From positions 452 through 64,451 of the forward strand of contig JBJMGV010000115.1 in NCBI GenBank assembly GCA_045807725.1: DNA of 64,000 nucleotides. Direction: 5' to 3'. The position numbers and the translations under genes were made by a program. The stretch comes from Blastocatellia bacterium. GTDB taxonomy: Bacteria > Acidobacteriota > Blastocatellia > UBA7656. Shown piece after piece: positions 11,176 to 64,000 of the stretch; the stretch's first letter is position 1; each line of letters begins with the position of its first letter. The notes beneath the pieces were generated by a model. It was given only the letters and a program-made list of their open reading frames with translations. It was not told where the DNA came from and ran no database searches.

Positions 11176-11226
11176 CTCAGCCTGCTCTTGATGAGAGGGT
11201 GCGCGCTGTGTCGCCAGCAGGTATTT

Positions 11227-14785: not shown

Positions 14786-14806
14786 ACGTCCAACGCAACG
14801 TCAATC

Positions 14807-14849: not shown

Positions 14850-14876
14850 AGTCCGCGAGATCAGGAGGGGAAGATT

Positions 14877-15350
14877 ATGCCGATGAGAATCAACACGCCG
14901 ATGCCTGGCTTTGACGGCGCGACCGAATGGATCAATAGCGAGCCGGGCGATGCGACATCAGCCAAATTGACGCTGGTACATTTCTGGTCTTTGAGCTGCG
15001 GCATCTGCAAAGAGAATTTGCCGCGCGTCGCCGAGTGGCGCGAGTCGCATCGAGACAGCGGCCTGCGTGTCATCGCTGTTCATATGCCGCGCTACCCTGC
15101 CGATGTTGATGTCAACGCCGTGCGCGAAGCGATTAGCGCTTACGGTATCAACGAAGCGTGCGCGGTTGATAACGAACACAAGCTGCGCGACGCCTTTCAG
15201 AATGAGCAAGGGTTTGTGCCGGCTTATTACCTGTTCGATGCTGAAGGCAAGCTGCGCGGCTTTGCGGCGGGCGAGCGCGGCATTGATATGATTGCGCCGA
15301 CCTTGAAGCGGCTGCTTGTGTCGGTCGCCTCGCAAGAAGCTGCCGGCTAA
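14877..15350 (+). CDS. Thioredoxin-like / TlpA-redoxin family protein
   Basis: HFWSLSCGICKENLP CxxC motif. CAGGAGGGG RBS before the internal ATG. Confidence 0.7.
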   Translation: MPMRINTPMPGFDGATEWINSEPGDATSAKLTLVHFWSLSCGICKENLPRVAEWRESHRDSGLRVIAVHMPRYPADVDVNAVREAISAYGINEACAVDNEHKLRDAFQNEQGFVPAYYLFDAEGKLRGFAAGERGIDMIAPTLKRLLVSVASQEAAG

Positions 15351-16873
15351 GCCGGAGGCGAAACTTTTTTAAGGGCCGCCTGCCGCATCGTTTCGATAGA
15401 CGGCAGGCGGCCCGTCCATAATTCAAACTGGCGCGCGGCCTGCGCCACCAGCATCTCGATCCCGCTCAAACCCAGACAGCCGTGCCGTCGTGCGTCGGCC
15501 AGAAACCGCGTCTCAAGCGGGTTATAAACCAGATCGTAAGCGATGCGGCGACCGTGCCACGTGTCTGCGTGAATGACGCTCGTGCCGTCGCTATGATTCG
15601 TCATTCCGACGGGCGTTGTGTTGATGATGACCTCTGCATCGCTTTCGCTTATCGCATCGAGGTGATTCATCTCAACGCCGAACTCGTCGGCCAATGCGGC
15701 GGCCTTGTTCATATCGCGGGCGAAGATCGTCACGCGCGCGCCGCGCTCAAGCAAGCCGAAGACGACCGCCCGCGCTGAGCCGCCTGTTCCAATCACCGCG
15801 CAATGCGTCGCCCGCAATTCGGTTAAGTCGGCAAGCGGCGCGATGGCTCCATACGCATCGGTGTTGTAGCCTTTCAGTCGATTGCCTTCGACCACTACAG
15901 TATTCACCGCGCCGATGCGCCGCGCCGTTTCGTCCATCTCATCCAGGAAGGGAATGACCGCCGTTTTGTGCGGAATCGTCACGCTAAAGCCGCGCAGCCG
16001 CCAATCCATCTCGCGCGTCGCTGGCCGCACAAAGCGTTTGAAGAATGCTTCAACGTTGCCGACTTCAAAAGGCAGATAAATGTAATCCAGCCCACACTCT
16101 CGAAAGGCGCGATTGTGCATCAGCGGCGATGCCGAATGCGAGACCGGCTTGCCGATGATGCCGACAATCTGTGTGTCGCGGCTCAGGCTGTGGATGCGAT
16201 AAAGGTCGCGCAGTTCGTCGCACGTCACCTGGCCGGGCGCGCTTTCGTGCCCGCGCCTCATTGAGCCGAACGTCAGAAAGCTGCCGCGCGAAGGGCCGAG
16301 TATTCTCGTCACCATACCCGCTTCCTGCATAGCGATAGCGATGATTGTTTGACCTTCGAGCCGTGCGCGCTTGAGCAGGGCGAATACTTCAAGCGAATCG
16401 CTGATGTCGTTGGCGCGCACGGCGATCTTATGAATGGCTGCCGGCAAGCTCGTCAAACGGTCGAATATAGTCGTTAAATCGGCGGGCGTTTCGTTGAAGT
16501 TGTGATAAGAGACGATGAGCCGTGATGGATCAAGCAGCCTCGCCACGCGCTCGTCATAGTGCGCGGCTTCGATGTCGCAGTAATCCGCGCCCTGTTCTAA
16601 CGACGCGGCGAGCAGCCGCAAGCGCACGCCCTTATCAATCGTTTGCTGACCGCCTTCGTCAGCCGCGCGACAGGTGGCGATGACCGGCAGAGGCTTTTGT
16701 TTGAGCAACGCGCTCAGCCTCGATGGATCGTTGAAATCGAAATCGCGCAGGTAATCAAGCCGCAGTTCGATCAGGTCGGCAACCGTGGCCGCGCGTTGCA
16801 TCGCCGCCCGCGCTTCGCTAACGGTCGGCTCAGTGATGACGGCGCAGATTCTCGCTTCTTGTTCAGCCATCAC
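15347..16873 (-). CDS. aroDE: Bifunctional 3-dehydroquinate dehydratase (type I) / shikimate dehydrogenase
   Basis: N-terminal AroD-like TIM barrel (ICAVITEPTVSEARAA...). C-terminal AroE (GKPVSHSASPLMHNRAF, Rossmann GTGGSARAV). Confidence 0.85.
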   Translation of the reverse strand: MMAEQEARICAVITEPTVSEARAAMQRAATVADLIELRLDYLRDFDFNDPSRLSALLKQKPLPVIATCRAADEGGQQTIDKGVRLRLLAASLEQGADYCDIEAAHYDERVARLLDPSRLIVSYHNFNETPADLTTIFDRLTSLPAAIHKIAVRANDISDSLEVFALLKRARLEGQTIIAIAMQEAGMVTRILGPSRGSFLTFGSMRRGHESAPGQVTCDELRDLYRIHSLSRDTQIVGIIGKPVSHSASPLMHNRAFRECGLDYIYLPFEVGNVEAFFKRFVRPATREMDWRLRGFSVTIPHKTAVIPFLDEMDETARRIGAVNTVVVEGNRLKGYNTDAYGAIAPLADLTELRATHCAVIGTGGSARAVVFGLLERGARVTIFARDMNKAAALADEFGVEMNHLDAISESDAEVIINTTPVGMTNHSDGTSVIHADTWHGRRIAYDLVYNPLETRFLADARRHGCLGLSGIEMLVAQAARQFELWTGRLPSIETMRQAALKKVSPPA

Positions 16874-16900
16874 TTGCGGGGCGGGTCGTTGTCGCTGATC

Positions 16901-17845
16901 TCATTCTTCGTCAAATGCAAACACGTCGGTTGAAAGATAACGCTCACCGAAATCGGGGAGCACGGCAACGACACGCTTGCCTTCGCCCAACTCGGCGGCA
17001 ATCTTCAGCGCCGCCCAACAGATTGCGCCCGACGAGACGCCGCACAGAATGCCTTCTTCGCGCGCCAGCCGCCGCGTCATCTCTTTGGCGTCGGCATATT
17101 CGACCGGCACGATGCGGTCAATCAAGTCCATATTGAGCACGGCGGGAATGAAGCCCGCGCCGATGCCTTGAATCTTGTGCGGGCCGGGGACGCCGCCCGA
17201 CAGCACCGGCGAATCTTTCGGCTCGACGGCGATCAGCTTCACGTCGCGCAGGCGGTCTTTGAGCACTTCGCCGACGCCTGTGATCGTGCCGCCCGTGCCG
17301 ACGCCGGCAACCAGCGCATCAAGCCGCGCGTCGGTGTCTTCGATAATCTCAAGCGCCGTCGTCGAGCGGTGAATGGCCGGGTTCGCCGGGTTCTCGAACT
17401 GCATAGGGATGAAGCTGTCGGGCGTCTCATCACGCAAGCGCTCGGCGGTGGCAATCGCGTCGTTCATCCCTTGCGCGCCGGGCGTCAAGACGACTTCCGC
17501 GCCGAGCGCGCGCAGCACACGTATGCGCTCGATGCTCATCGAATCGGGCATCGTCAGAATCAAGCGATAGCCTCTGGCGGCGGCGGCCATCGCCAGGCCG
17601 ATGCCGGTGTTGCCCGATGTCGGTTCGATGATCGTCGTGACGCCGGGCGTGATACGGCCTTCGCGCTCGGCGGCAAGAATCATCGAAGCGCCGATGCGAT
17701 CTTTAACCGAGCACATAGGGTTGAAGGATTCGAGCTTGACGAGCACTTCGGCAGCATTGGCTGCGGGCAGGCGATTCAAACGCACCAGCGGCGTGTGGCC
17801 GATGGTTTCAAGGATGCTGCTGCTTATCTTCGGATGACGCGACAT
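16901..17845 (-). CDS. cysK: Cysteine synthase (O-acetylserine sulfhydrylase)
   Basis: PLP-fold type [13 protein letters not shown] lysine motif. 314 aa. Confidence 0.85.
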
Positions 17846-48653: not shown

Positions 48654-48872
48654 ATGAAGAAAGTAGTCTTAGCCATCATCCTCTCGCTGTCCGGCGCACT
48701 GACGCTCGGCGTATGGCCGGTTGCCACTCCTGCCGTGTATGCGCAGAAGAGGGACGACCGGAAGAAAGACCCGCCCGGCCCGCCCGTGCAGAAGGACAAG
48801 GGGGGCGACAAGCGCCCCAAAGAGCCGCCTCCCAAGCGCAGGCCGCCTGATGGGGCCGCCGCACTTTTCTAA
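48654..48872 (+). CDS. Small secreted peptide (signal peptide plus Pro/Lys-rich basic tail)
   Basis: MKKVVLAIILSLSGALTLGVWPVATPAVYA then KRDDRKKDPPGPPVQKDKGGDKRPKEPPPKRRPP. 72 aa. The stop is followed directly by a 21-bp hairpin. Confidence 0.45.
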   Translation: MKKVVLAIILSLSGALTLGVWPVATPAVYAQKRDDRKKDPPGPPVQKDKGGDKRPKEPPPKRRPPDGAAALF

Positions 48873-48917
48873 GCGAAAGAGCGCGATTCGTTGAGAAACG
48901 AATCGCGCTCTTTCGCT
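48872..48917. terminator. Perfect 21-bp stem / 4-nt loop bidirectional terminator between convergent genes
   Basis: agcgaaagagcgcgattcgtt-gaga-aacgaatcgcgctctttcgct, preceded by ttttct. Confidence 0.7.
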
Positions 48918-48961
48918 ATTACATCAGCAATTCTCAGTAATGCGCCTGTTCTATCTGCGGC

Positions 48962-50986
48962 TCACTTCGCGGGTCGCTGGAGGATTTCCGCCAGGGCCTG
49001 CAATCGCTTCGAGTCTGCCGCATTCTTAGTCGTTCGGGCGCTCTCTTTCAGCGCTCGCGCGAAGCCCTGAAGTTTTGCCATCTCTGTTCGATTCAGGTGT
49101 GAACTCTCCGCGCTTTGAATCTCCTTCCGCACGGCGGCGATTTGATCTGCCGGCAGAGCCTGTGATCGCTCCAACTGATCCAGATAAGCCTTGGCCACTA
49201 CCAACTGAGCCGGCCACTCAATCCTTTGCTGGTTCTGCACGTTGAGTTCAGCCACTTGCACCGTTTTCGCGGCATCGATCTCATTCTGGGTCAAAAACCT
49301 GCTCGGGCTTAGTTCCAGGATGTCCAGCCCGCGAGCGATCTCCGAAGCGTAGATGTGACCGTTGTACCAGTAGGCGGACCATTCGCCTCCCAGTACAAGC
49401 ATATGTGGATCAATTGGCCCACGGTCGAAATAGGCAATTTCAACCGGATGCTCCGCGTCGGTAAAGTCCATAACCGAGATGCCACCCTGGTACCAGGCTT
49501 GCACTTCTATATCCCGGCCAGGAACGGGAATGAGCGAACCGTTGTGTGCCACACAATTCTCGGTGTCGCCCTGTGCGGCTGGCAACTTGAAGTAGTTCGA
49601 GAAATGCAGCTTGTTATTCTCCAAACGAAACAGCGCGTCAGCGCCCCATTTGTTCGGATCGTTGGGACGGCAACGCGCACCCAGTCCTCCGCCCCACTCA
49701 TCGGTGAAGACGACCTTTTTTCCATCGTTTGAAAACGAGGCCGAGTGCCAATATGAATAGTTCGGATCATTGACGGCGTCCAGACGCTTCGGATGCACGG
49801 GATCTTTTATGTCCAGCAAGATTCCATTGCCGGAGCAAGCGCCGGCGGCCAAGCCAATCGACGAGTACACGGTAATATCGTGACACTGGTCGGTGTCGGC
49901 TGGCTTCTCCGCGCCCTCTTTGCCATGGGTGCCGCCGTTGCTCAAGCCGTTGAGTGCGTTCGTGCGGGGATCGATGAACACACGAGGGCTGTTTACAACC
50001 TTGGAATCCTGCGGCGCATCCAGCGGAACTTTGATTACATCAATGCGAAACAGCGACGTGTTCGGGTCTTTATCCGGTGCTTCACCCGAGCACCCGGCCA
50101 ACTCTTCACTTTGACGCACGAACGATGTGCCGGATACATAGATATAGACGTTGTTCTTATCCTTCGGATCGACGACAAGCGTATGGGTGTGCGAGCCACG
50201 GCACGTTTGCACAGCGGCAATCTGCTTGGGACTTCTGATGTCGGATATATCGAAAATTCTCACGCCACGGAACCGCTCTTTTTGCGGCGCGGGGATATGG
50301 GGTTTGTTCTCCTGGCCGGGGGGCGGCGGAGGTGCTGGAGGAAATCCCTGTACGCCGCAATCGAGGCGGCCATTTGGCTGCTCGACCGACATAAACATCA
50401 AGTTCTTGTAAACCGACACATCCCCCTGTCCACCCGGACAAACCATCGACGTCAACAACTGGGCTTTCGTCGGGTTGGAGATGTCATAGATATTGACGCC
50501 ATAAAAATTACCCTGGAACAGGTAGTGCCCCTGGAAGGCGAGGTCCGAGTTTGCAAACGCCAGTTGAGCAATAACCACTTGCATCGGCTTAGGCATCTTC
50601 GAGGGATCGGCAACGCCGAGCAGCTTTAAGGTCTTCTGAATTTTTGGATTATTCGGATCAAAATCGAGTTGAAACGCATCTGGTTTCTTGAGGAGCAGAA
50701 GGTGCTTCATGCCGAGCGCGGCTTCTCCTGCGTCGAATAATCCCGGTTTCAGTTTGGCGCGCGGGTCGTTGGCATCTGAGCCGGTCATGCCGGCGGGGAG
50801 CGGCGGCGCTGGCTCAGGGGCAAATGGATCATCCCCTGCTTTCTTTTGGTCAGGTGTAGCGTTTGCAGCCTTCGTTGACCCCTGAGATGCAGGCGTTTGC
50901 GCCTGCATCTGGCCGGCAAAACACGACCATAAAAGAAGGGAGCCTACGAGTAAACGGAAAGCCATGGAATGTGCTCGACTCATCAT
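48962..50986 (-). CDS. Secreted beta-propeller-like protein (possibly LVIVD-repeat family) with C-terminal coiled-coil
   Basis: Signal peptide. Repetitive beta-strand-rich core. Gly/Pro-rich segment PPAPPPPPGQ. The family assignment is tentative. Confidence 0.45.
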   Translation of the reverse strand: MMSRAHSMAFRLLVGSLLLWSCFAGQMQAQTPASQGSTKAANATPDQKKAGDDPFAPEPAPPLPAGMTGSDANDPRAKLKPGLFDAGEAALGMKHLLLLKKPDAFQLDFDPNNPKIQKTLKLLGVADPSKMPKPMQVVIAQLAFANSDLAFQGHYLFQGNFYGVNIYDISNPTKAQLLTSMVCPGGQGDVSVYKNLMFMSVEQPNGRLDCGVQGFPPAPPPPPGQENKPHIPAPQKERFRGVRIFDISDIRSPKQIAAVQTCRGSHTHTLVVDPKDKNNVYIYVSGTSFVRQSEELAGCSGEAPDKDPNTSLFRIDVIKVPLDAPQDSKVVNSPRVFIDPRTNALNGLSNGGTHGKEGAEKPADTDQCHDITVYSSIGLAAGACSGNGILLDIKDPVHPKRLDAVNDPNYSYWHSASFSNDGKKVVFTDEWGGGLGARCRPNDPNKWGADALFRLENNKLHFSNYFKLPAAQGDTENCVAHNGSLIPVPGRDIEVQAWYQGGISVMDFTDAEHPVEIAYFDRGPIDPHMLVLGGEWSAYWYNGHIYASEIARGLDILELSPSRFLTQNEIDAAKTVQVAELNVQNQQRIEWPAQLVVAKAYLDQLERSQALPADQIAAVRKEIQSAESSHLNRTEMAKLQGFARALKESARTTKNAADSKRLQALAEILQRPAK

Positions 50987-51789
50987 TTCTCCTTAAAAGG
51001 GTTTCTCTCCAACATGTTTTGCATGATCCTGATTTCGGCGCGCTGGCCGCTATCGACATCGGTTGCGAAGTTGAATAATTCAGCGTCCTGTCCTGCACCC
51101 GCAGTATCAAACAAATTTTTCACCATGGTCAAAGCGCCGCCGTGATGCTGAATCATCCCTGTCAGAAACAGATGGTCGAACTCCTCGCCTTTGCTATTCC
51201 TGAGCGCCTCCATCTGCTCCGGGCTAAGCATGCCCGGCATAAGCGCCATCGGCTCGTGTGACATCTTCGTGTGGTCCATGTCCGACATCTTCATGTGGTC
51301 CATGCCCGGCATCGCCTCTGATACTGATTGTCCACGGGACACTAACCATCGTTTCATGAACTTCATCTCATCGGACTGCGATCTGCTGATTCGCGCCCCC
51401 AGCGACCTCAGGTCCTTGTTCTCAGTATGCGATTCGATCAGCGCAGTCATCTCAACCGCCTGCGCGTGATGCATTATCATACCTTGCATGAACTGCACAT
51501 CCGCCGGAGAGGCTGGCGGCAGTGTAGCCCTCGTCGTCGGGGGAAGCGTCCGCGTCGGTTTCCCTGGCGCACCGGGTTGGACCAAGACCGGTGGCGATGG
51601 TGCAGTCTGTTGTGCGCAGACACGTAAAGAGAACAGACTTGCGAGAATACCCGCTACCGCAAGCACGCATAAGCACGCCGCAACGCTTGATACAACCCGA
51701 ATCTCCCAGGTGCACCTAACATAGATAGGTCTCACATGCCGTAAAAAGGTAAACATTGTAAGGCTCACATTATCATATTCAGCGGGCAC
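50983..51789 (-). CDS. DUF305 family protein (Met/His-rich, copper-resistance associated)
   Basis: Two HH motifs (MIMHHAQAVEM, MIQHHGGALTM). Met/His-rich spacer MPGMDHMKMSDMDHTKMSHEPM. Signal peptide. Confidence 0.7.
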   Translation of the reverse strand: MPAEYDNVSLTMFTFLRHVRPIYVRCTWEIRVVSSVAACLCVLAVAGILASLFSLRVCAQQTAPSPPVLVQPGAPGKPTRTLPPTTRATLPPASPADVQFMQGMIMHHAQAVEMTALIESHTENKDLRSLGARISRSQSDEMKFMKRWLVSRGQSVSEAMPGMDHMKMSDMDHTKMSHEPMALMPGMLSPEQMEALRNSKGEEFDHLFLTGMIQHHGGALTMVKNLFDTAGAGQDAELFNFATDVDSGQRAEIRIMQNMLERNPFKEK

Positions 51790-52043
51790 CTCATAGTCGC
51801 CTTTGCCGTCAGATGAACTATCTTCTCACTGATTGGCTGTTCAATGATTCTCTTTGGTTAAGCATTACAAAGGTGAAGGTCAGGGAAATCTCTGCGTTGA
51901 TGAACCGTCACTTGCGCGCCCGCAGTTCAACGCCTGCCTTAGGAGTCGAAGCGCCGACAGTTGAACCGCCACTTGAGGTTTAATAGTTCGCCCCAGGCAG
52001 GAACGAAAGGTCGCTTCATGTCCTCCGCTAACTTCAGCGACTG

Positions 52044-52760
52044 TCATTTCTTCCAGGATTCCGCCGATAAGGGCAACTCATTGAGTTCGGCGCGGGCTTC
52101 CCGCCAGGTCGGGTAATGCCGGTCAAGCAAAGCCGTAAAACGATCACTGTGCGTCGGCTCCAGCAGATGCACCATCTCATGAACGATGATGTATTCGAGC
52201 AGGTCTTTCGGTTTCTTCACGAGTTCCGTATTCAGGCGAATGTGGCCGGCGCGGTGGTTGCACCCACCCCAGCGGGTCTTCATTCGCTGAAGAAAGTACC
52301 GCTTCACTTGTACGCCCAGCTTCGCTTCCCACTTTTGGATCAACGCCGGCATCACCTCGTGGAGCAGCGACTTGTGCCACTCGTGCATCACTTCGGCGCG
52401 TTTCTCGGCGCGGGTTCCTGGGCGCACCGTGAGCGTGATGCGTCGGTGGTCAAGGCGAACGCATGGCTTAGCGTCAGCGTAGGCGACCGTCAGCAGGTAG
52501 CGCCGTCCCCAAAGATAATGGCTTTCGCGGGTGATGAACTGCCGGGGTGTCTCGCGCGCCTGATTCCTGAGCTTGCTTTGCTGCTCGCGTATCCAGCCGA
52601 GTTTGCTGATGGCATAGGCGCGGGCAACGTCGAGACGGGTGGCGGTCGGAGCCACTAACGTGACGCGGCCATCGGGCGGATGTACGGAGAGATGGACATG
52701 CTTGATGCCTTTCCTCGTCACCTGTATCGAAAGCTCGCCGATCTGAATCGTCTCGTCCAT
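52044..52760 (-). CDS. YgjP-like (DUF45) M48-family zinc metallopeptidase
   Basis: HEMVHLLEPTHSDRF HExxH motif. Typical companion of type I R-M hsdR genes. Confidence 0.85.
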   Translation of the reverse strand: MDETIQIGELSIQVTRKGIKHVHLSVHPPDGRVTLVAPTATRLDVARAYAISKLGWIREQQSKLRNQARETPRQFITRESHYLWGRRYLLTVAYADAKPCVRLDHRRITLTVRPGTRAEKRAEVMHEWHKSLLHEVMPALIQKWEAKLGVQVKRYFLQRMKTRWGGCNHRAGHIRLNTELVKKPKDLLEYIIVHEMVHLLEPTHSDRFTALLDRHYPTWREARAELNELPLSAESWKK

Positions 52761-54394
52761 CAGTAGCCGGGTTGATTCTTGATGATCTCGAAAATCGCCT
52801 GCGTCGCTTTGCGATCCCGCGACATAAGCGGAAACAGGGCGTTGAGCACTTGCTTCTCGCGCGTCTCGTCACCTTTCCATCCCGCCGGGGCGCGCCCACG
52901 CATAGCCTGATCGAGTCCCAGCGCCAGCTTTGCCTTCTCCTCATCGTCCGCCGGGCACTGAAAGGTCGTCGCGGCAATGCGGCTCAGGTTGTTGAACAGC
53001 ACGATGGCTTCGGCTTTGCCGTGCAGCGCCGCCGGCACGTTGGCGGTCGGCTGTTTCTTTGCCAGTCGCAACGCCAGCGCCTCGGCGTCTTTCAGGAATT
53101 GCTCATAATCCGCCGCGTCGTCGCGCTGCTGCTTGATCAGGTCATCGAGCAGCTTCGACATCTCTTCATAAAATCTGGGGTCGGTCAGTTGGTCGCGGAT
53201 GATCGTCTTGCGGACGTTGTTGATGATGCCTTCGGCGATGGCGTTGTTTGACAGCTTGCCTTTGGCGTTCAGCTTACGAGCGATGGCGTCGTGGATGCCC
53301 GTTCCGATAATCATCTCAGTCAGCGGAAGCCGGCTCAGGCTGCCTAGCTCGGCGGCGGGATCGGCCTGGATGTAGGTGTTGAGCAGGTGTCGCATATCTG
53401 CCTCGTAAGGCTTGATGTCCAGCTCTTCGCCCGAATGCTTTTTGATTGCCGCCCGCGTGTCGGCGTAAAACTGTGTCTCCTTCTCTAGCGCGGCAATCGC
53501 CGCCGCCGAATACCCAACTTCGGCTAGATTCCCCGCCACCTCCGCGTAGGCACGCAAAAAGGTGGCGGTCATCTTGTAAAAAGAGATGCGCAGCGGTTCG
53601 GTCGTATTGAGCGCGTTGGCGTCGTTAGCGTTGCCACAGAAATAGTGTAGGTATTGTTCCATCTCGCGCGGCGGCGGCACCGGCTCGCACAGATGCCTTA
53701 GCGCCTCACGCGCTTCGTCAAGCTGTTTCTTTCCTTCCGTCCGCCAGTCTTTCACGATCACATTGCCGTCATCGCCGCGTTCGTCAACCTCCAGCTCGTC
53801 AGAGTTGTAGACCGCGATGGAGTTCTGCACCTGCTCGAATAATTCCTTGTAATCAACGATGTGACCGTAGGGCTTGTCGTCGCCGTCCAGCCGGTTGGTA
53901 CGGCAGATGGCCTGGAACAGCGTGTGGTCACGCATCTCGTTGTCGAGATAAATGTAGGTGCAGCTCGGCGCGTCAAAGCCGGTCAGCAGCTTGCTCACCA
54001 CGATCAGCAGCTTGCAGTTGGCCGGCTCTTCGATAAAGCGACGCTTCATCTCGTCCTCGTACTGCTTCGTCGTCTGCCTGCCCTTCAACACGTGCTGGGT
54101 GTAGGTGTCGAATTTGTAACGTTCGTCACTGTTGATCGGTTGGCGGGAGATTTCGTTGTGGTTCGGCTCGTAGGAGGTGATGATGCCGCAATACTGCCCG
54201 AAGTAGGTGTTTTGAAAGAGGCGAAAATAATGGCAGGCGTCATAGATCGAAGCCGCCACCAAAATTGCCGTGCCCCGGTCGTCATTTAGGCGCGGCCTCC
54301 GTTTGAAATCCTTGATGATGTCGGCAATGATGCGCTGCTTACGCTCTTGAGAACTCATCAACTCTTCCATCGTCGCCCAACGCCGTCGCAGCAC
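52760..54394 (-). pseudogene. hsdR: Type I restriction enzyme R subunit, 5'-truncated (helicase domain 2 plus C-terminal region only)
   Basis: Begins in helicase motif IV-VI region (LLIVVSKLLTGFDAP, QAICRTNR). No restriction-endonuclease domain and no Walker A helicase domain 1. Upstream sequence is an hsdS fragment instead. Confidence 0.75.
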
Positions 54395-54735
54395 GGCGCG
54401 TTGAAAGGCTTTTCAGGAACTAGACTGACTTGCCCAAGTGTTCCTCGTTGCGTGAAGACAATGTCTCCCGGACGAGCAAGGTTCGCTTCGAGCAACTTGG
54501 CTTTTTTAGTAGTCACGAAGACGAATGCGCCGGAAACCCACTGCCCACTCATATTCTGTCCGCGAATGACTGGAACACCGTCATCCACATAATCGGCTGA
54601 TACGAGGTCTGACCCGAACGGCCCACCTACAATTGCGTTGCGCGCTGATGAAGCGATGCTACGGACATTCGTGCATTCCCACTCTTCTGGAATCACGCCC
54701 ACTTCGGTCTGCTTGTAGCCGGGTTTCAATTCCAT
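54358..54735 (-). pseudogene. hsdS: Type I R-M specificity subunit, 3'-truncated (N-terminal conserved region plus part of first target-recognition domain)
   Basis: MELKPGYKQTEVGVIPEEWEC..., a typical HsdS N-terminus. Its ATG overlaps the hsdM stop (ATGGAATTGA). Only about 125 aa; a full HsdS is about 400 aa. Confidence 0.7.
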
Positions 54736-56252
54736 ACCGCCCCCATCTTCTTCAGGTGTTCGTCCACGCGGGCGGCGAGGACTTCGACTTCCTCGACGAG
54801 TAGCGGCAGCGGCGTGGCGTAGCGTTCGGCAAGCTCGCGGATGCGCCCGGTCAGCGTTTGCGAGACGCGATCCAGTTCGCCCTGCACGGCGGCGGCGAGC
54901 GCGGCCAGCCATTTGTCATCCACTACCAGCCGCTTGATCTCGTCTCCGGTAAGCAATGGATATTTGGCCGCGACCGCCGCCGTCAGCTTGTCCTGCGCCT
55001 GCCAGAGTTTGTCCGCCGGCGCGGCTTCCTGCTCGACGAGGGCAAGGTAACGCTCCAGCATCCGGCGCTCGTCGTCGGCCTCGGCGCTGGCTTTCGGGTC
55101 ACGTTTAGCTTCCTTCTGTATTTCCTTCAGGCGAGCGGTGACGTTCACACGGGTGAGCTTGCCCTTGTCGTTCAGGGCTTCGGCTAACAAGCCGTCTTCG
55201 CCGCCGTGTTCTTCTGCGAGGTCTTCGATCTGCTGCTGAAGCGCGGCAACGTCGGCTTCGAGCTTTTCAATCGCGGCCTGTTCGCCGGCAAAGTAATGGG
55301 CGATGACGAGCGCGGGCGGAATCAGCTCGGCCTGATACTTCTTCTTGCCGATGACGAAATCGGGCCGCGCCCTGGCCTTCTTGCTCTTATCCTCAACGAT
55401 CAGCCGGGGCTGGGCGGCATCATTCCAGTCGTCGGCGGCGATCAAATAACAATCGTCCTGCATCGTCTCGGCCCAATAATCCATCAGGTGTTGATACACG
55501 TCGTAGGCATCCAGCAGCGGCGCGCGTTTGAAGGCGGCGAGCAAATCCTCGGCGATGCTTTCGATGAGCGCCTTCGGGTGGCCGCCTTTGCCGAAGCCTT
55601 TGAGTGGCGGCGTGTTCTTCTCTTGCCACTCGGCGAACAGTTGCGTCACCGTGATGTTGAAGGCGGCGAACTCGGTATGTCCGAAGATGGCTTGCTTGAG
55701 TTGCGTGTGGTCAGTGGCGAGTTGATAGTAACCGGGGCGCAACGGCTGAAGCAGCGCCGCGCGGACGCCGGGGATGACCTGCCAGTAACGGTCGAGCGCA
55801 TCAAGGTCGCGCGCCGGGATGCCGCCGCGCAGGTGGCCGTCAATGTCCTGAATGTCTTCCGGCTCGGCGCTGTCAATGTAACGCGGCAGGTTGAGATTGT
55901 AAGCGTTTTTCGGGTCGGCGATTTCATCCATCGGCACCATCCGCGAATAGCGCGGCACATCGATCAGCCGTGCAAAGGTGTCTACGATGCGGTGAATGTC
56001 CTGCTCGCGCAATCGGTTCTTGTTGCCGTCTTTGATGAAGCCACGGCTCGCGTCAATCATAAAAATTCCACGGCGGGCAGCGGCGTTTTCTTTGTCGAGC
56101 ACGAGGATGCAAGCGGGAATGCCGGTGCCGTAAAACAGGTTGGCCGGTAGCCCGATGATGCCTTTCAGATAGCCGGAATTGAAGGCAAGCCAGCCGCATT
56201 TCTTCGAATATCTCCAGGCTCTATAATGAAATCCGCCCAGAGAGATTGACCT
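54726..56252 (-). pseudogene. hsdM: Type I R-M methyltransferase subunit, 5'-truncated (lacks the SAM-binding catalytic N-terminus)
   Basis: The ORF begins at ...GIIGLPANLFYGTGIPACILVLDKENAAARRGIFMIDAS (end of the MTase domain) and continues with the HsdM C-terminal region. The frame is open, with no start, right up to the czcA stop codon 150 nt upstream. Motifs I and IV are absent. Confidence 0.7.
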
Positions 56253-59200
56253 TTACTCAGCAGCCTTTTCGGCTCTACGGGCGGCGCGGCGCTCTACCCA
56301 CTCGTATACCATTGGTAGAATCACGATCTTGAGCGGGCGCGTCACCAGTCCGCCGACCACTACGATTGCTAAAGGCTTCTCGATTTCGGCTCCGGTTCCC
56401 GAAGAGATAATGAAGGGGATGAGGCTGATACTGCCGATCAAGGCGCTCAACAACTCGGCCCGCAAACGCACGCTCGCACCCGTAATCACGGCGTCATCGA
56501 GACTCATGCCGCCATCGCGGAGCTTGTTGATGTAAGACACCATCACCATGCCGTTCTGCACCGCAACGCCGAACACTGCAATGAATCCGACAATCGCCGG
56601 CACGCTCAACGGGAAACCTGAGATCAGCAAAAAGGTCGTGCTGCCGACCAGCGCGATGGGAATGTTGAAGATGATCGTCAGTGTGTTGCGCAGCGAATTG
56701 AAGCAAGCATAGATCAGCACAAACACCAACAACAGTGAAATCGGTATAGCAATCAACAAGCGGTGAACCGCCTGTTGTTCGTTCTCGAATTGACCGCCCC
56801 AGGTGATGAAGTATCCAGGCGGAATCTTGACCTGGCTGGCTACCTTTTGTTGCGCATCGTGAACGAAGCTGCCGATGTCGCGCCCCTTAACATTGCACAT
56901 CACGACGATGCGGCGCAGCGAGTTCTCGCGGCTGACAATCGATTCGCCGCTCGACAACTTGAACGTCGCCAACTGGCCGAGCGGTATGCGTCCGCCGACC
57001 GGCGCGGTGATCAAAATATCGTTGAGCTTTTCAACCTGATTGCGAAAGTCTTCCTGCAAGCGAACGAAGATGGCAAAGCGGCGCTGGCCTTCGAGCACGT
57101 CGGTGGCTTCGTCGCCGCCGATGGCGATCTTGACGACTTCGAGCACGTCAGCGATGTTCAATCCGTAGCGGGCGATCTTATCGCGTTCCAGCGCAATCTC
57201 CAGATGTTCTTCGCCCGCGACCTGCTCGACGGCGAGGTCCTCGACGCCGTGAGTATCTGACATCGCATCGCGAATCGCTTCGGCGGTCCTGGTCAAGGTC
57301 TCCTGATCCTCACCGAAAATCTTCACGGCAATCTGCGCGTTGATGCCCGATATGAGTTCGTCGTTGCGGGTCTGGATGACCTGCGAAAAGTTGAATTTGA
57401 CGCCGGGAAATCCTTCGACTCGGTGGCGCATAGCATCAACCAGTTCGTCTTTGGTCTTTGCGGTTGTCCACTTCTCTTTAGGTTTCAGGCGGACATACAA
57501 TTCGTCATTGCTGACACTCTCAGGGTCGCCGCCAAGTTCGGCGCGTCCGATCTTGGCAACAATCGTCTCAACTTCAGGAAACTCGCGCAGCGACTTCTCA
57601 ATCTGCGATGAAACTTCGATGGCGCGCGTCAGCGAGATGCTTGCCGGCATCGTCGCTCGCACCAGCATATTGCCTTCGTCAATTGTCGGCAGAAATTCGC
57701 TGCCGAGTATAAAGCCCTCAGCAACGCTCCAGAGGATTAATCCAATGGCGATGAGGATGGTGACATAGCGGTGCGCGATGGTCCACTTGAGCACCGGAAC
57801 GTAAATGCCTTTGATGAATTTGATGATCGGATTGGCGCGCGGCTCGCCCCTCTTCAGCCGCAACCACATGGCGCAGAGCATCGGCGCGATGCACAGGGCC
57901 ATCAACATCGAGCCGATCATCGAGAAGGTGACGGCATAGGCGAGCGGCTTGAACAACTTGCCTTCGATGCCCTGTAAAGTGAAGACCGGAAAGAAGACGG
58001 CGACGATGATGAGAATGGCGAAAAACATGGGTCTGCCGATTTCCTGAGCGGCGACCAGTATGGCTTCGCGCGTCGAGTGTTCGCGGTGCTCCTCCAGGTG
58101 GCGGTAGATGTTTTCAACCATCACCACCGTCGCATCGACCATCATACCGATGCTGATGGCCAGGCCGCCGAGCGAGGTGAGGTTTGCCGAAAGCCCTGAG
58201 TACCACATCAGGATGAAGGCCACCAGCATGCAAAACGGGATGGCGGCGGCGGTGATCAGCGAACTGCGAAAATCGCCGAGCAGCAAGAGCAGGATCAACA
58301 GCACCAGCGCTTCGCCTTCAATCAACGATTCGACCACCGTGTGGATGCTGTTATCGACCAACTCCGATTGATCGTAATAATCGACGATGCTGACGCCTTC
58401 GGGCAGCGCCTTGTTAATCTCGGTAACTTTTTCCTTGACCCGCTCGATCACCTGCTTGGTGTTTTCGTTGATGCGCTTGAGAACGATGCCGGTGACGATT
58501 TCGCCGTGGCCGTCCTTGGTGACCGCGCCCTGGCGCATCTCGTTGCCGATTTCGACACTGGCAACGTCGCTGACGCGGATCGGCGTGCCGTTGCGTGAAT
58601 CGAGCACGATGTTTTTGATATCTTGAATGTCCTTGACTAGCCCGATGCCGCGAACGATGTACTGCTCGTCGCCGTGCTCAAGGAAGTTCGCGCCGGCGTT
58701 CTGATTGTTCGCTTGAACAGCCTCGAAGAGCGCTTTGAGCGAGATGTTGTAATTGACCAGCGCCTGCTGATTGGCGATGACCTGATACTGTTTAACGTCG
58801 CCGCCGAAGCTCAACACATCGGCGACGCCGGGCACTGTGCGTAGTTGCAGTTTGACGATCCAGTCCTGAATCGTGCGCAGTTCCTGTATGCTCTTGCCGC
58901 GCCCGGCGATTTCGTAAAGATAAATCTGTCCGGTGCCGGTGGTGATCGGCCCCATCTGCGGTTCAAAGCCCGCCGGGATGCGATCCTTGGCGAGCGAGAG
59001 CCGCTCAAGCACCTGCTGGCGGGCGAAGTAGATGTCGATGTCATCGCTAAAATAGACCGTCACCACCGACAGACCGAACTTGGAATCTGATAGCACCCGC
59101 ACCACTCCCGAAATCCCGTTCATGACGTTTTCGATGGGAAAGGTGATGAGTTGCTCGACTTCCTGTGGAGCCAGACCCTGCGCCTCTGTGTCGATCTCTA

Positions 59201-59339
59201 CCTGCACCGGCGTAACGTCGGGGAAGGCATCGACGTTCAACTTGTAAAGCGCCAAAATGCCGCCAGCCGTAATCAGCATCGAGACGACGGCAACCAGCAA
59301 TCGCTCGCGGTAAAAGAAGGCAATGAAATTGTCGGTCAT
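56253..59339 (-). CDS. czcA: Heavy-metal efflux RND permease (CzcA/CusA family)
   Basis: 1028 aa, 12 TM. HME-family N-terminus ...AFPDVTPVQVEI... Confidence 0.9.
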   Translation of the reverse strand: MTDNFIAFFYRERLLVAVVSMLITAGGILALYKLNVDAFPDVTPVQVEIDTEAQGLAPQEVEQLITFPIENVMNGISGVVRVLSDSKFGLSVVTVYFSDDIDIYFARQQVLERLSLAKDRIPAGFEPQMGPITTGTGQIYLYEIAGRGKSIQELRTIQDWIVKLQLRTVPGVADVLSFGGDVKQYQVIANQQALVNYNISLKALFEAVQANNQNAGANFLEHGDEQYIVRGIGLVKDIQDIKNIVLDSRNGTPIRVSDVASVEIGNEMRQGAVTKDGHGEIVTGIVLKRINENTKQVIERVKEKVTEINKALPEGVSIVDYYDQSELVDNSIHTVVESLIEGEALVLLILLLLLGDFRSSLITAAAIPFCMLVAFILMWYSGLSANLTSLGGLAISIGMMVDATVVMVENIYRHLEEHREHSTREAILVAAQEIGRPMFFAILIIVAVFFPVFTLQGIEGKLFKPLAYAVTFSMIGSMLMALCIAPMLCAMWLRLKRGEPRANPIIKFIKGIYVPVLKWTIAHRYVTILIAIGLILWSVAEGFILGSEFLPTIDEGNMLVRATMPASISLTRAIEVSSQIEKSLREFPEVETIVAKIGRAELGGDPESVSNDELYVRLKPKEKWTTAKTKDELVDAMRHRVEGFPGVKFNFSQVIQTRNDELISGINAQIAVKIFGEDQETLTRTAEAIRDAMSDTHGVEDLAVEQVAGEEHLEIALERDKIARYGLNIADVLEVVKIAIGGDEATDVLEGQRRFAIFVRLQEDFRNQVEKLNDILITAPVGGRIPLGQLATFKLSSGESIVSRENSLRRIVVMCNVKGRDIGSFVHDAQQKVASQVKIPPGYFITWGGQFENEQQAVHRLLIAIPISLLLVFVLIYACFNSLRNTLTIIFNIPIALVGSTTFLLISGFPLSVPAIVGFIAVFGVAVQNGMVMVSYINKLRDGGMSLDDAVITGASVRLRAELLSALIGSISLIPFIISSGTGAEIEKPLAIVVVGGLVTRPLKIVILPMVYEWVERRAARRAEKAAE

Positions 59340-59375
59340 AATCGGACCATAATCGCTTGATGGCTCATGCCGCCT

Positions 59376-60596
59376 CTATTGTTCGGGTTTGCTTTGTTGC
59401 AGCAACAGGTAGTTTCCCTTCACCACCACTTTGTCGCCCGCCTTTAGCCCGTCACGAATTTCAACCCGGTCGTTGCTCTGTATCCCGGCGCTGACGACGC
59501 GCTTCTCGTAGCCGCTGCCGCTGGCGACGAAGACCACCTTTTGCCCGCCATCATCGAGCAAAGCCGATTGAGGAATTGAAATGGCGCTGCGATTCACGTC
59601 TGTAACGATCTCCACATTGGCAAACATCTCCGGCTTGAGTGTGCCGCCCCGGTTTGGCACCTCTGTGCGAACCTTGAGGCTGCGGGTTTCTGGATCGACC
59701 ACACTCGAAACCAGGATGACCCGGCCTAAGAAGGTCACGCCGGGAAAGGCAGGGACTGTGACTTTCACCTCCTGGCCAAGCTTGACGCGTTCAAGGTCTT
59801 TTTCAAACACATTCGCATCGATCCAGACGCTCGATATATCGATGATCTTAAAAAGGCTGGCGTCCGTGCCGACGGTCGCGCCGATGGTGGCGTTGCGTTC
59901 GACGACAATGCCGGCGATTGGCGAGGTCAGCGAAAAGACGGCGGTAAAGTCTGTCCTGGTTGTGAGCGCGTTGATATCCGACTCCTTCAAGCCGAGGATG
60001 AGCAGGCGGCGGCGAGCGGCTGCCAGCGCCGCTTTCGTCGATGCGATAGTATTTGCTGCCGATGCCTTTGCCACTTCAAGATCGTGCTCGGCAGCCTGAA
60101 GATTTTTTCCCGCCGTGATGGTCTTCTCGAAGAGCATCTTGGTGCGGTCGTAGGTGCTCTGGGCGAGCTTGATCTCGGCTTCCGAGGTGCGGCGCGCATT
60201 CTCATATTCGGCGAGCGCCTTGAGATAATCCGATTCGGCTTCGTCTATGTCTGATGATTCCAGGTCGGCCAGCTTCTGTCCCTTGCTGACGACGCTGCCC
60301 TGACCGGCGTAAAGGCGAACGAGCCGGCCTTCATGAACAGGGCCGATGTTTGCCATGCGGTCCTCGGAGACGAGTATCTTCCCCGTCGCAACTATCGCCC
60401 CGGCGATGGGCTGTGGCACTACCGTTTCGGTCTCTATGGCATGGCTTGCGGCAGACTCCGAGGTGGTTGCGGCGGCCTGCCCGCTGGCTGGGCTTGCGGG
60501 AGCATCCGTAGTCTTCTTGCAGCCGCTACACACCACCGTGAAAAGCGCCGCGAGCAAGAAGGCGCGCAGGTTGCGTCGAAAAAACATATCGGACAT
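59376..60596 (-). CDS. czcB: RND efflux membrane fusion protein (CzcB/CusB family), lipoprotein
   Basis: Lipoprotein signal LFTVVCSGC, biotinyl-lipoyl-like and beta-barrel MFP domains. Start at internal ATG MSDMFF. Confidence 0.8.
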   Translation of the reverse strand: MSDMFFRRNLRAFLLAALFTVVCSGCKKTTDAPASPASGQAAATTSESAASHAIETETVVPQPIAGAIVATGKILVSEDRMANIGPVHEGRLVRLYAGQGSVVSKGQKLADLESSDIDEAESDYLKALAEYENARRTSEAEIKLAQSTYDRTKMLFEKTITAGKNLQAAEHDLEVAKASAANTIASTKAALAAARRRLLILGLKESDINALTTRTDFTAVFSLTSPIAGIVVERNATIGATVGTDASLFKIIDISSVWIDANVFEKDLERVKLGQEVKVTVPAFPGVTFLGRVILVSSVVDPETRSLKVRTEVPNRGGTLKPEMFANVEIVTDVNRSAISIPQSALLDDGGQKVVFVASGSGYEKRVVSAGIQSNDRVEIRDGLKAGDKVVVKGNYLLLQQSKPEQ

Positions 60597-60612
60597 CCTT
60601 TCGCATACGCCG

Positions 60613-62052
60613 CTACTTTTGCAGCGGCGTTGCGGTCGCCATTTCAAGATCGAGTAGCGACATCTGGTAATCAAAAAGCGCCTGGTAATAACTGGCCAGT
60701 GTTTCACGCCGCGTGCGGATCGCATCCAGCAAGTCCAGCGTCGAGCCTTCACCGGCTTTCAATGAGAATTCGGTGAGCTTCTGAATCTCATCGACTTTCG
60801 TCAGCACGCCGGTGCGATAAAGCTCAACTCGCCGCTTCTGAATCTCGAAGGCCGCCAGCGCCTTATCGACATCGTTGAGCACCTGATTGGCAAGCATCTT
60901 CTGATCGTTCTGCGCCTTCTTTTTTTGAATCAGCGCCTTGACGCGCTCGCCCTGGTTGCGATCAAACACCGGCAGAACAAAGCCGATACCGATGCTATAG
61001 GTTTTATCGACCAGCACCTGCTTGATGCCTACGCCGATATTGAGGTCAGGAATGCGCTGCGCGTCCTGCAAGCGAATGGCTGAATCGGCAGCGAGTTCGC
61101 TGATTTGTGCGGCCTTGAGGTCGGGCCGAGCCGCCAGCGATTTATCGCGCAGCTCGGCAAGCGAGAACTGGTAAGGCTGGTAGTCGAGGGAGCCGGCAAC
61201 CGCTACATCCATGGCTCGATAATCGCCGCCCAAGGCCAGCCGAAAATCGCGCACAGCGATTTCGTAATCCCTTTGCGAATTGGCCACGTCGGTGTCGAAC
61301 TTGAATTTTTCGACTTCGAGCCGACTCAGGTCCAACCCCGAAATCTCGCCCAGTTGATAAAGCTCGGTCGAATGCTTGATGGTTTCGGCAAAAGTTTTCT
61401 GGTTCTCTTGCGCAAGCCCCAGCAGCGATTCGGCCAGCACTGCGGTATAGAACTTTTTCTTCAGATCGGTGGTCAACTGCCAGATGGTTGTTTGAAACTC
61501 TGCGCGGGCCAACTCGGCATTGGCGTTGGCGGTATCGATGCGCTTGCCGCGCTTGCCGCCAAGCTCAAAGGTCTGCGAGATGCTGTAGGTGATCTCCTGT
61601 TCTTTGAAGAACGGGCCGCTGAAATCCAAAGGGAGCTGCTCAAAACCGGCGCTGAATTCAGGATTCGGGCGAAGCCGCGCCGTCAGCTTTTCTGCGTCCG
61701 CCGTTGCGATGTCGTAGCGGCCCGCGACGAGTTGTAAGTTATGTTGCAGAAAAATCGCCACGGCGTCCGCCAGCGTGACCGATCTATTGGCCGCCGGCAC
61801 GGGCGGTTGCTGCCGGGAGTGGAGCATCTCGACAATGGTGGCGTTGAGGCCCTTCAAAGGTGGTTGCGGCGACTTTTCTTGCGCCAGAATGGCAGGAGTC
61901 GTGAACGTGACTAAGAGCAGGCTGGCGAGGCACCTCAGGCGGCGACTCTCTTGTGGATGGCGGCATGAGGCGCTGCCTGATCGATCCAGTAAAACCATAG
62001 AATCGCGTCGCTCAACGAAACGGCGCAGAGGATTTTTAGTGCGTCGAGACAT
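60613..62052 (-). CDS. czcC: TolC-like outer membrane efflux protein (CzcC family)
   Basis: Signal peptide, two OEP repeats. Confidence 0.8.
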   Translation of the reverse strand: MSRRTKNPLRRFVERRDSMVLLDRSGSASCRHPQESRRLRCLASLLLVTFTTPAILAQEKSPQPPLKGLNATIVEMLHSRQQPPVPAANRSVTLADAVAIFLQHNLQLVAGRYDIATADAEKLTARLRPNPEFSAGFEQLPLDFSGPFFKEQEITYSISQTFELGGKRGKRIDTANANAELARAEFQTTIWQLTTDLKKKFYTAVLAESLLGLAQENQKTFAETIKHSTELYQLGEISGLDLSRLEVEKFKFDTDVANSQRDYEIAVRDFRLALGGDYRAMDVAVAGSLDYQPYQFSLAELRDKSLAARPDLKAAQISELAADSAIRLQDAQRIPDLNIGVGIKQVLVDKTYSIGIGFVLPVFDRNQGERVKALIQKKKAQNDQKMLANQVLNDVDKALAAFEIQKRRVELYRTGVLTKVDEIQKLTEFSLKAGEGSTLDLLDAIRTRRETLASYYQALFDYQMSLLDLEMATATPLQK

Positions 62053-62807
62053 CCGATCACCTTCACCTTCATCGGCTGTTTAAGTGATTGTTAGTTGTGC
62101 GAATGAGATCAATCCCGGCAGTCTCAAAGCCGGATCGCACCCCCGAACGCCTGATCGGCTATCATCGGTAGGAAAGGCACGCCCGCCGCAGGCTGATCAT
62201 TTTGCATCGGTAATGTTTGGAGCGGGCAGGCAGATGAGCCGTGCCACCGTCGCTTTAGGCGAGAGGCGGTGCGCGATTGGAGAGGATGAGGGACACCCCA
62301 TTAGAGAGAGGTTCCGAAATGAACGTTTTCGAGCTTACAGGCTTCGGACAGATATCGGGAGGTATCGAGATGGGCCGGGTACCGGCAACCAAGTTGCGCT
62401 GCAAGCAGCACGACAGGCAGCACGTATCGCTGCTGGTTCCAGATGGTTTGCCTGGGTCGCTGCTGCGGCTCGCCTCAACGCTACAAGTCGCGAGCCTCGG
62501 AACGCGTTGCCCGCTGCCGTGATGGTGGGTGACGGTCACCAGAAAGGAGTGCGCCACAAGGCATAGCAGCACGACCGCTCTTGCAAACGACCTCGCGTTG
62601 CTGGCTCTCGAATAGTTGCCGAGCACTCTCAAAAACGGTGTCCTCTTTGATTGCAGGATGGAAAATCAATTAAACAGGAAGACGGTTGTGCCGTCAATGA
62701 AAGGAAGGTCGGCAAGCTATAGTGCGGAGTTGCGCGGATTCAAAGATCGGTCAAAATCGCCGAGGCTGGTCCCTGCGGCGCGACCATGATTTACTGACCT
62801 GTGATGA

Positions 62808-62966
62808 TGTCCTAATCTGAGAGTTCAGACGTTCTACGCCTCGCTGACAGATGAATTGCTTCCTACGACCAAAGCAGCGCGCACGGCGATGGCCTACAGA
62901 CGGGATGTTGACTTCCTCTCCGGTTGGATTGCGGCGGCGGAGCAGATAGTCCAGACGGGCGATTAA
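62808..62966 (+). pseudogene. Tyrosine recombinase / integrase N-terminal (SAM-like domain) remnant
   Basis: Open frame ...TFYASLTDELLPTTKAARTAMAYRRDVDFLSGWIAAAEQ* matches the Phage_int_SAM consensus T..AYRRDL..F..W. It is about 50 codons, bounded by stops, with no catalytic domain. Confidence 0.4.
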
Positions 62967-62987
62967 GTGAAATTCTCTTGCTCGGAA

Positions 62988-63680
62988 CTATCGCCTGGCT
63001 AAACTCACCAAAACGGTTCGCGCTTCTTCGACTGTACTGATTGGGGAGTCGAAATCTACCCTCAGTTTTCGCTTGTCGGCCAACATATCAAACCCTTCAC
63101 TGTCGATCCCCACCATGCTTATGGCATTCGCCTTGACGCCCTTCAGTACGTCGCAATAATGAAACAACGCTTGCTGGTGATCTTGATTCATATGTTCGAC
63201 TATGCGACTCTCGGCTTCGCGGAATGGGTTCCTGATGAGCATCGCAGCCGGTTCAATCCAGTAGATTTCTCCAAATCCGCCGATAAAGCGCGCTTGCCGC
63301 AAGCCGATGCGATAGAACGAGAAATCATGCGTCTCAAAGTAGGATGCGGAGGAAGGAAAGTAGCGTAGATAGCGCAGGCGTGCGTCTGTATCGGGCGGCG
63401 GGATTGATTTCGCGTCTCCGATCCAGGTCAGGCGGCTGCTTGCCTGGGGATCGTCAGCGCCCTGCTCGAAGACCGTGAGCGACACCTTGTTGTTGCGTTT
63501 GATATTGCGGGTATGTTGGGCAATGTCACTGATGAGCAGGGTGGGCGATCCGTCGTGGTCAAGGACATAAGGAACAATTGAGCCGAAGGGATAGCCTTCG
63601 ACATCTACTGAATGCGTAGAAAGCACACCCACACTCTGGTGGTTCAGCAGTCGCCTTGCGGTTAATGTGTGGTCTGACAT
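62988..63680 (-). CDS. Pyridoxamine 5'-phosphate oxidase-like FMN-binding protein with DUF2470 C-terminus (HugZ-like)
   Basis: Split-barrel N-terminal domain LNHQSVGVLSTHSVDVEGYPFGSIVPYV. Confidence 0.55.
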   Translation of the reverse strand: MSDHTLTARRLLNHQSVGVLSTHSVDVEGYPFGSIVPYVLDHDGSPTLLISDIAQHTRNIKRNNKVSLTVFEQGADDPQASSRLTWIGDAKSIPPPDTDARLRYLRYFPSSASYFETHDFSFYRIGLRQARFIGGFGEIYWIEPAAMLIRNPFREAESRIVEHMNQDHQQALFHYCDVLKGVKANAISMVGIDSEGFDMLADKRKLRVDFDSPISTVEEARTVLVSLARR

Positions 63681-63932
63681 GCCTGCTATTCTACCTGATT
63701 CTCTGTTGGCAATGCTCGCCCGTCTTGCAAGCCCGACAATGATTAGTACCGATGCAGTGTTTTCTCCAGGTCAACATTGTTCCTGTGGTCATTCAGAACG
63801 CCGGGCAGGTGAATGTGGCGACTGAGGACGGGCCGCAGATAGAAGATGCAGAAGGAAGGAATGGCAAGGGATAATTCATGTGTGCCATCGGGGATTCATG
63901 AAAATGTGCTTTGCGGCTAGACTTAGAATCTA

Positions 63933-64000
63933 ATGAACATCATTTCTCTCGAAGATATCTGTAAGAGTTACGGCAACAAGCCACTGTTTGAGGGCGTGAC
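63933..64000 (+). CDS. ABC transporter ATP-binding protein (5' partial, runs off window)
   Basis: MNIISLEDICKSYGNKPLFEGV is a typical ABC ATPase N-terminus. Confidence 0.5.
   Translation, partial: MNIISLEDICKSYGNKPLFEGV

Follow-up and report, generated by a model that had tools for sequence, protein, structure and literature searches.

Does a locus that keeps parts of all three hsd genes of a type I restriction-modification (R-M) system still encode such a system, and if not, how was it lost? The question is raised by a 65,413-nt contig of a metagenome-assembled genome (MAG) from soil, assigned to the Blastocatellia (Acidobacteriota), of which a stretch of 64 kb, hereafter the window, was analysed. 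The minus strand of the window carries sequence related to hsdM, hsdS and hsdR, flanked on one side by a gene for a YgjP-like metallopeptidase and on the other by genes for a resistance-nodulation-division (RND) efflux system, for which 'czc' serves here only as a label and implies no metal specificity. A first-pass annotation had described a decayed type I R-M locus with all three hsd genes truncated, and the break points mapped against intact relatives bear this description out. The locus is very probably a horizontally acquired type I R-M operon that lost its function through at least two deletions or rearrangements and now persists as a non-functional remnant.

Intact relatives and the derived state of the locus

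A search with the HsdR fragment found 546 relatives; one genome per species was scanned and the best 80 loci were kept (L001-L080). The closest HsdR relatives, at 85-87% amino-acid identity, belong to Blastocatellia and Pyrinomonadaceae MAGs. The operon of L003, a Pyrinomonadaceae MAG, was taken as the intact reference for mapping break points by tblastn at the protein level and blastn at the DNA level. It comprises hsdM (831 amino acids, 4799-7294), hsdS (about 428 amino acids, sharing 10 nt at its start with the end of hsdM), hsdR (1028 amino acids, 8549-11635) and ygjP. Domains were called with Pfam and with the TIGR00497 (HsdM) and TIGR00348 (HsdR) models.

A full-length hsdR followed by ygjP is found in 80/80 related loci, and hsdM and hsdS are both full length in all 55 loci that include enough upstream flank for them to be counted. 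As all relatives are full length, the truncated state of the window is derived. These counts and the break points also agree with the two deletions proposed at first reading, one removing the hsdS 3' end with the hsdR 5' end, the other the hsdM 5' end. Alignment to intact HsdM, HsdS and HsdR, recommended then as a check, placed the breaks at 56177 in hsdM and at 54407-54414 between hsdS and hsdR.

Approximately 4.1 kb of the 7.55 kb of the L003 operon remain. The surviving segments are truncated but collinear with the reference, in the same order and on the same strand, with E-values of 0 for hsdM and hsdR and 5e-41 for hsdS; as these are zero or close to it, chance homology can be dismissed. 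Split functional genes that would supply the missing parts are absent from the 64-kb window, where tblastn with the intact L003 proteins gave no further match at E < 0.1. A sequence error whose correction would restore full frames is ruled out by the amount of DNA missing, which exceeds 1 kb in one gap and reaches about 2.4 kb in the other.

The hsdM remnant and its break point

Residues 344 (S344) to 831 of L003 HsdM align with the window at 68% identity (E = 0, tblastn), and the corresponding DNA matches L003 over 56177..55405 at 85.6% (blastn). Pfam N6_Mtase is covered only at positions 204-309 of 311 and TIGR00497 at 388-497 of 515, which leaves the tail of the methyltransferase fold, as the first-pass annotation had concluded. 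The HsdM_N domain, the S-adenosylmethionine (SAM)-binding motif I (DPTCGSG) and the catalytic motif IV (NPPF) are absent, and both motifs lie in the lost part of L003 HsdM. The remnant is thus devoid of all three features by which a functional HsdM was recognized, namely the N-terminal domain, motif I and motif IV.

The hsdM frame runs open from the czcA stop (TAA, 56255-56253) without any ATG, GTG or TTG before GTG 56102. This lack of a start had been noticed from the outset: the native start is absent and GTG 56102 is the first start-type codon in frame. The break itself, junction 1, falls at 56177/56178, and the DNA immediately upstream is unlike that of all relatives. It had been thought to coincide exactly with the end of the czc operon. 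This does not hold, because a stretch of 75 nt (56178-56252) with no relation to hsdM separates the czcA stop from the break. This spacer resembles neither hsdM of the relatives, nor the DNA 3' of czcA in 80 relatives, nor any other part of the window. Compared with L003, at least 1.03 kb of hsdM has been lost.

The hsdS-hsdR junction

The start of hsdS is normal: its ATG at 54735 overlaps the hsdM stop by 10 nt, identically to intact relatives, as was first described. The length then assigned to it, some 125 amino acids, has to be shortened. Homology to HsdS ends at about residue 108, and the final 15 codons of the 125-amino-acid open reading frame (ORF) are hsdR DNA read in the wrong frame. 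The best relative, L068, is 66% identical over residues 8-108 (E = 5e-41, tblastn), and L003 45%. Approximately 109 codons are left, compared with about 428 in L003. Pfam Methylase_S has no match in the remnant, which does not possess the two target recognition domains (TRDs) and the conserved central and C-terminal helices of a functional HsdS.

From about 54407, corresponding to F481 of L003 HsdR, the DNA is that of hsdR, and residues 481-1028 are matched at 84% amino-acid identity (E = 0, tblastn). Whereas near-full-length HsdR relatives contain HSDR_N, ResIII/SWI2_SNF2 and T1R_D3-like domains, only the T1R_D3-like domain (helicase domain 2) is detected here, and TIGR00348 is covered at 484-672 of 674. 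The remnant retains helicase domain 2 and the C-terminal helical domain. It has lost the nuclease domain and helicase domain 1, in accordance with the first description, and with them the combination of a PD-(D/E)xK nuclease and both superfamily 2 (SF2) helicase domains expected of a functional HsdR. The native start is missing as well, and the only possible starts are GTG 54394 and ATG 54370.

The joint between the two genes, junction 2, was placed from alignments of the window to L068 (hsdS) and to L001 and L004 (hsdR). The two reading frames do not match across it: that of hsdR is closed by a TGA at 54415-54413, and that of hsdS continues to a TGA at 54360-54358. As the former stop precedes the hsdR sequence in its own frame, no S-R fusion is encoded, and the chimeric S-R product once envisaged for this locus can be discarded. 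The joint offers at most 5 nt of possible microhomology (CTGAA). Relative to L003, about 2.4 kb have been lost from hsdS and hsdR together.

For the ORF products of both the hsdM and the hsdR remnants, an exact match is missing from the NCBI protein collection. The NCBI accession numbers pass consecutively from the LVIVD protein through YgjP and the hsdS remnant to the RND permease, leaving no protein record for the other two remnants, which were presumably flagged as pseudogenes or left unannotated in the public annotation.

Database proteins of 529-537 amino acids named 'HsdR' were considered as a natural short form of the protein or as products of the same deletion, and both possibilities were rejected, because L161-L163 and L172 contain the hsdR DNA in full. 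The short ORFs (P0036-P0099; L161, L162, L163, L172) restart at a conserved methionine (ATMEELM) after upstream frameshifts; these short 'HsdR' proteins are gene-calling products in fragmented, mostly long-read assemblies.

The ygjP gene and the layout of the locus

The ygjP gene, which comes last in the conserved four-gene operon hsdM-hsdS-hsdR-ygjP, adjoins hsdR in 80/80 related loci and is intact in the window, as it had appeared at first sight. Pfam YgjP-like (PF01863) is covered at 2-206 of 207 (E = 1e-56), and the full-length domain together with its HExxH motif, here HEMVH, places the product among the predicted YgjP-like/M48-SprT-like metallopeptidases. The protein is 87% identical to its L003 counterpart, and the similarity of the R-M module to its relatives stops 1-12 nt past the ygjP stop (52032-52043). 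No useful information on YgjP or COG1451 together with type I R-M was found in the literature that was searched.

In the closest YgjP relatives (at least 90% amino-acid identity) a tyrosine integrase gene lies 1-2 kb downstream of ygjP (L166 3958-5214, L167 2322-3443), and the four-gene operon therefore probably travels on integrative islands. In L167-L171 a 67-amino-acid T1RH-like_C fragment, apparently a remnant of another hsdR, is also located downstream of ygjP (L167 1654-1857).

Table 1. Features of the hsd locus and its surroundings (window coordinates)
Feature	Position	Strand	Remarks
RND efflux operon (OEP, membrane-fusion protein and RND genes), heavy-metal type	56253-62052	minus	
OEP gene	60613-62052	minus	Pfam OEP
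Membrane-fusion protein gene	59376-60752	minus	HlyD_D23/CusB match
czcA-like RND permease gene, last of the efflux operon	56253-59339	minus	Pfam ACR_tran 1-1019 of 1021, E = 4e-282; MFL6216117.1 'efflux RND transporter permease subunit'
Unique spacer, czcA stop to hsdM break point	56178-56252		75 nt, 46.7% GC
hsdM remnant, residues 344-831 of 831	54726-56177	minus	3' 58% of gene; open frame
hsdS remnant, about 109 codons	54408-54735	minus	native ATG, conserved N-terminus, about two thirds of TRD1
hsdS-containing ORF, 125 amino acids	54358-54735	minus	MFL6216116.1, 'hypothetical protein ACJ74J_19695'
Junction 2, hsdS codon ~109 to hsdR codon ~481	54407-54414		located within about 8 nt
hsdR remnant, residues 481-1028 of 1028	52760-54407	minus	3' 53% of gene; ORF 54394-52760
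ygjP-like M48/SprT-like metallopeptidase gene, 238 amino acids	52044-52760	minus	intact; MFL6216115.1 'M48 family metallopeptidase'
DUF305 gene	from 51789	minus	after 254-nt intergenic stretch
LVIVD-repeat protein gene, 674 amino acids	48962-50986	minus	MFL6216113.1

Loss of activity and age of the deletions

With HsdM devoid of its SAM-binding and catalytic motifs, HsdS of most of its recognition structure, and HsdR of both the nuclease and the ATP-binding helicase domain 1, neither restriction nor methylation activity is possible, and the remnants appear to have no residual function. A restriction complex is built of two HsdR, two HsdM and one HsdS, the last being required for both activities (PMC11411939). 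As this whole assembly is needed, either deletion on its own would put an end to restriction without setting free an unopposed nuclease. The order of the two events would thus be indifferent for viability, and both orders appear viable.

The hsdM (483 codons) and hsdR (548 codons) remnants contain no stop and no frameshift over 1,031 codons. If they are neutral, the divergence accumulated since inactivation is no more than about 2.6% (95% upper bound, nonsense substitutions only), and less than 1% when indels are included. The ratio of nonsynonymous to synonymous substitution rates (dN/dS) between the hsdR remnant and intact relatives is 0.11-0.17, compared with 0.11-0.21 among the intact loci of the Blastocatellia group (L001-L005), and dS to the nearest intact relatives is 0.55-0.78. 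As the remnant has the dN/dS of an intact gene, nearly all of its divergence predates the loss of function. Together with the clean frames, this suggests that the deletions are recent; the remnants still resemble sequence shaped by purifying selection.

Genomic neighbourhood

The adjacent OEP, HlyD_D23/CusB-type and ACR_tran genes form an RND operon of the heavy-metal type (CzcCBA/CusCBA-like). When compared with 80 metagenome loci carrying CzcA relatives, the similarity of czcCBA (up to 94% at the amino-acid and 88% at the nucleotide level) breaks off at most a few nucleotides from the czcA stop, beyond which the genes vary; an hsd, ygjP, DUF305 or LVIVD gene follows czcA in none of the 80 loci. 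On the other side of the remnants, DUF305 and LVIVD constitute a two-gene module with 92-93% nucleotide identity to L164 and L165 and different flanks on both sides; the 92% identity to L165 is confined to window positions 48949-51809. Relatives of the LVIVD protein (91-94%) share only this gene pair, and two of them lie on contigs that break off immediately upstream of the DUF305 gene. The neighbourhood is, in short, a mosaic of modules. No insertion sequence (IS) ends, long direct or inverted repeats, tRNA genes or att-like repeats are present at the junctions or module borders, and differences in base composition between the modules gave nothing informative.

A tandem 24-nt repeat within the DUF305 gene (window 51260-51307; copies 92% identical) codes for the sequence MDHMKMSDMDHTKMSH, which is rich in Met, His and Asp and may plausibly be a metal-binding motif. 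Just 3' of the LVIVD stop, at 48872-48917, a perfect inverted repeat of 21 nt around a 4-nt loop is probably a transcription terminator. The locus with the closest czcA relative (L081, 94% amino-acid identity) encodes, about 1.5 kb downstream and on the other strand, a second RND permease that is a divergent paralogue (42% identity, 14560-17598); the window contains nothing comparable.

Origin of the remnant and competing explanations

The state of the locus could have been reached as follows. The Blastocatellia lineage would have acquired an hsdM-hsdS-hsdR-ygjP operon of a kind spread widely between phyla. One deletion would have removed at least the first 343 hsdM codons and everything upstream of them, joining codon 344 to the 75-nt stretch after the czcA stop. 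Another, of about 2.4 kb or more, would have taken hsdS from around codon 110 to its end, any cargo between hsdS and hsdR, and hsdR codons 1-480, leaving the out-of-frame joint. Since long repeats, IS ends and tRNA genes are wanting at the joints, the simplest mechanism, and apparently the one that operated, is illegitimate recombination involving little homology or none.

Several observations weigh against this account. The joints of a MAG contig are known from the assembly alone, and neither CzcA nor LVIVD relatives led to a sister genome in which this site is empty, holds a complete operon or shows the joints seen here; synteny is lost at the module borders even where nucleotide identity to the relatives is 88-93%. 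Might the locus then be an assembly artefact, a chimera or a collapse of strain variants, with the real genome containing an intact operon or no R-M locus? The MAG source, a mosaic neighbourhood in which the nearest relatives of each module lie in different contexts, and the two contigs that stop just upstream of the DUF305 gene, suggesting a region that is hard to assemble, would all be in keeping with it. De Bruijn mis-joins, however, need shared k-mers, whereas no more than 5 nt are shared at junction 2 and nothing at junction 1. Furthermore, two independent mis-joins less than 1.8 kb apart inside a single operon, with order and strand preserved, are unlikely, and outside the hsd remnants every other gene in the window is full length. 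An artefact is therefore very improbable.

A further difficulty concerns junction 1, where a simple deletion is indistinguishable from a rearrangement or from insertion of the czc segment, and only 1.4 kb of the contig lie outside the window. The czcCBA segment could have landed in hsdM, with the 5' half of the gene now residing elsewhere in the genome. The behaviour of czcCBA as a module, with homology to its 80 relatives ending at the czcA stop and different genes beyond, would be in keeping with such an event, and the integrase beside ygjP in L166 and L167 suggests that the R-M module is mobile too. Yet hsdM 5' sequence is found neither upstream of czcC (62053-64000) nor anywhere in the window, and the czc segment is not flanked by IS ends, target duplications or inverted repeats. 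This origin of junction 1 is unlikely; even if it were correct, the gene would be dead either way and the overall verdict the same.

Clean reading frames are also compatible with retained function, which has to be set against the proposed inactivation. YgjP, with or without the HsdR C-terminal half, could be expressed by read-through from a metal-induced efflux operon and serve a role other than restriction, or the truncated subunits could modulate or interfere with another type I system. The open frames over 1,031 codons, the low dN/dS and the intact ygjP would suit such a scenario. So would the absence of any terminator-like site from the minus strand between czcA and ygjP, because of which read-through transcription from czcA into the remnants is possible and can be put forward as a plausible prediction. 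The low dN/dS, however, reflects divergence that preceded the deletions (dS 0.55-0.78) and could not reveal a phase of relaxed selection that was brief and recent. Moreover, the hsdM and hsdR remnants have no native starts and hsdS is joined to hsdR in the wrong frame, no other genome displays the same architecture (the short 'HsdR' proteins being restarted ORFs), and there is no second type I system in the window. Retention for a function deserves almost no credence, and the dominant-negative products that had been imagined for the remnants are pure speculation: besides native starts for hsdM and hsdR, promoter-like sites are wanting on this strand between czcA and ygjP. An acquired operon disabled by deletions thus remains the preferred explanation.

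Spread and cargo of the operon family

Beyond the locus itself, the HsdR C-terminal half is 72-87% identical across Acidobacteriota, Pseudomonadota, Cyanobacteria, Verrucomicrobiota, Planctomycetota, Nitrospirota and others (L001-L080), and one copy of the operon is located on a cyanobacterial plasmid (L013). Judged from these sequences, the four-gene operon appears to have undergone very wide horizontal spread.

Extra DNA of 0.4-4.7 kb separates hsdS from hsdR in 30 of the 55 intact relatives, and approximately 15 have extra DNA between hsdM and hsdS. The cargo sampled includes paired GmrSD_N proteins resembling TgvAB of V. cholerae, GmrSD_N with Fic, an 862-amino-acid AAA_13 ATPase, and an AAA_21/AAA_15 ATPase with a small partner, as well as Schlafen/AlbA_2, RhuM, PIN, and SMODS with SLATT_4. 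The intervals examined are L008 4358-8546, L024 3807-8537, L026 4529-8275, L032 5935-8534, L077 6336-8549, L051 6695-8525, L033 6879-8537, L016 6268-7250 and L163 3977-5733. The deletion at junction 2 covers exactly this hsdS-hsdR hot spot, so one interval is both the preferred cargo site of the operon family and the site of a deletion.

Consequences for annotation

In annotation, hsdM and hsdR should be marked as pseudogenes and hsdS as a fragment; the locus should not be counted as a defence system, nor should a methylation motif be predicted from it for this MAG. The remnant offers a small, clean example of how a horizontally acquired R-M operon may be lost through internal deletions that involve little homology, if any, while an island is being rearranged or soon afterwards. 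Beyond correct annotation it matters little.

Comparison with known systems

The nearest counterparts of the locus are the hsdM-hsdS-hsdR-ygjP operons of L002 and L003, with a long HsdM of 830 amino acids and an HsdR of 1028. Gene order, strand, the 10-nt overlap and the adjacent ygjP are the same, and the parts retained show an amino-acid identity of 68-87% and a nucleotide identity of 83-86%. Unlike in L002 and L003, about 45% of the operon is gone in the window, namely hsdM codons 1-343, hsdS from about codon 110 onwards and hsdR codons 1-480.

Genes embedded in type I operons are familiar from prrC in EcoprrI and from the 'restriction-linked ORFs' of Campylobacter. TgvAB, encoded on VPI-2 of Vibrio cholerae, is a case in which defence genes are embedded in a type I operon (PMC11411939). 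Relatives of the present locus resemble operons of this type in carrying cargo, such as GmrSD-like pairs, between hsdS and hsdR, whereas no cargo is left in the window.

Truncated, non-functional type I loci are well documented, and the present remnant is an ordinary instance of a kind already known. Staphylococcus epidermidis ATCC 12228 and 1457 harbour non-functional type I loci with a truncated hsdR, a single-TRD HsdS and no hsdM (PMC6918075). Common to those strains and the present locus are the truncation or loss of several hsd genes at a single locus and the predicted lack of a restriction barrier. The Blastocatellia locus differs in belonging to another phylum and another hsd family, in being known from sequence alone, in keeping a part of all three genes, and in having break points that can be placed to within a few nucleotides.

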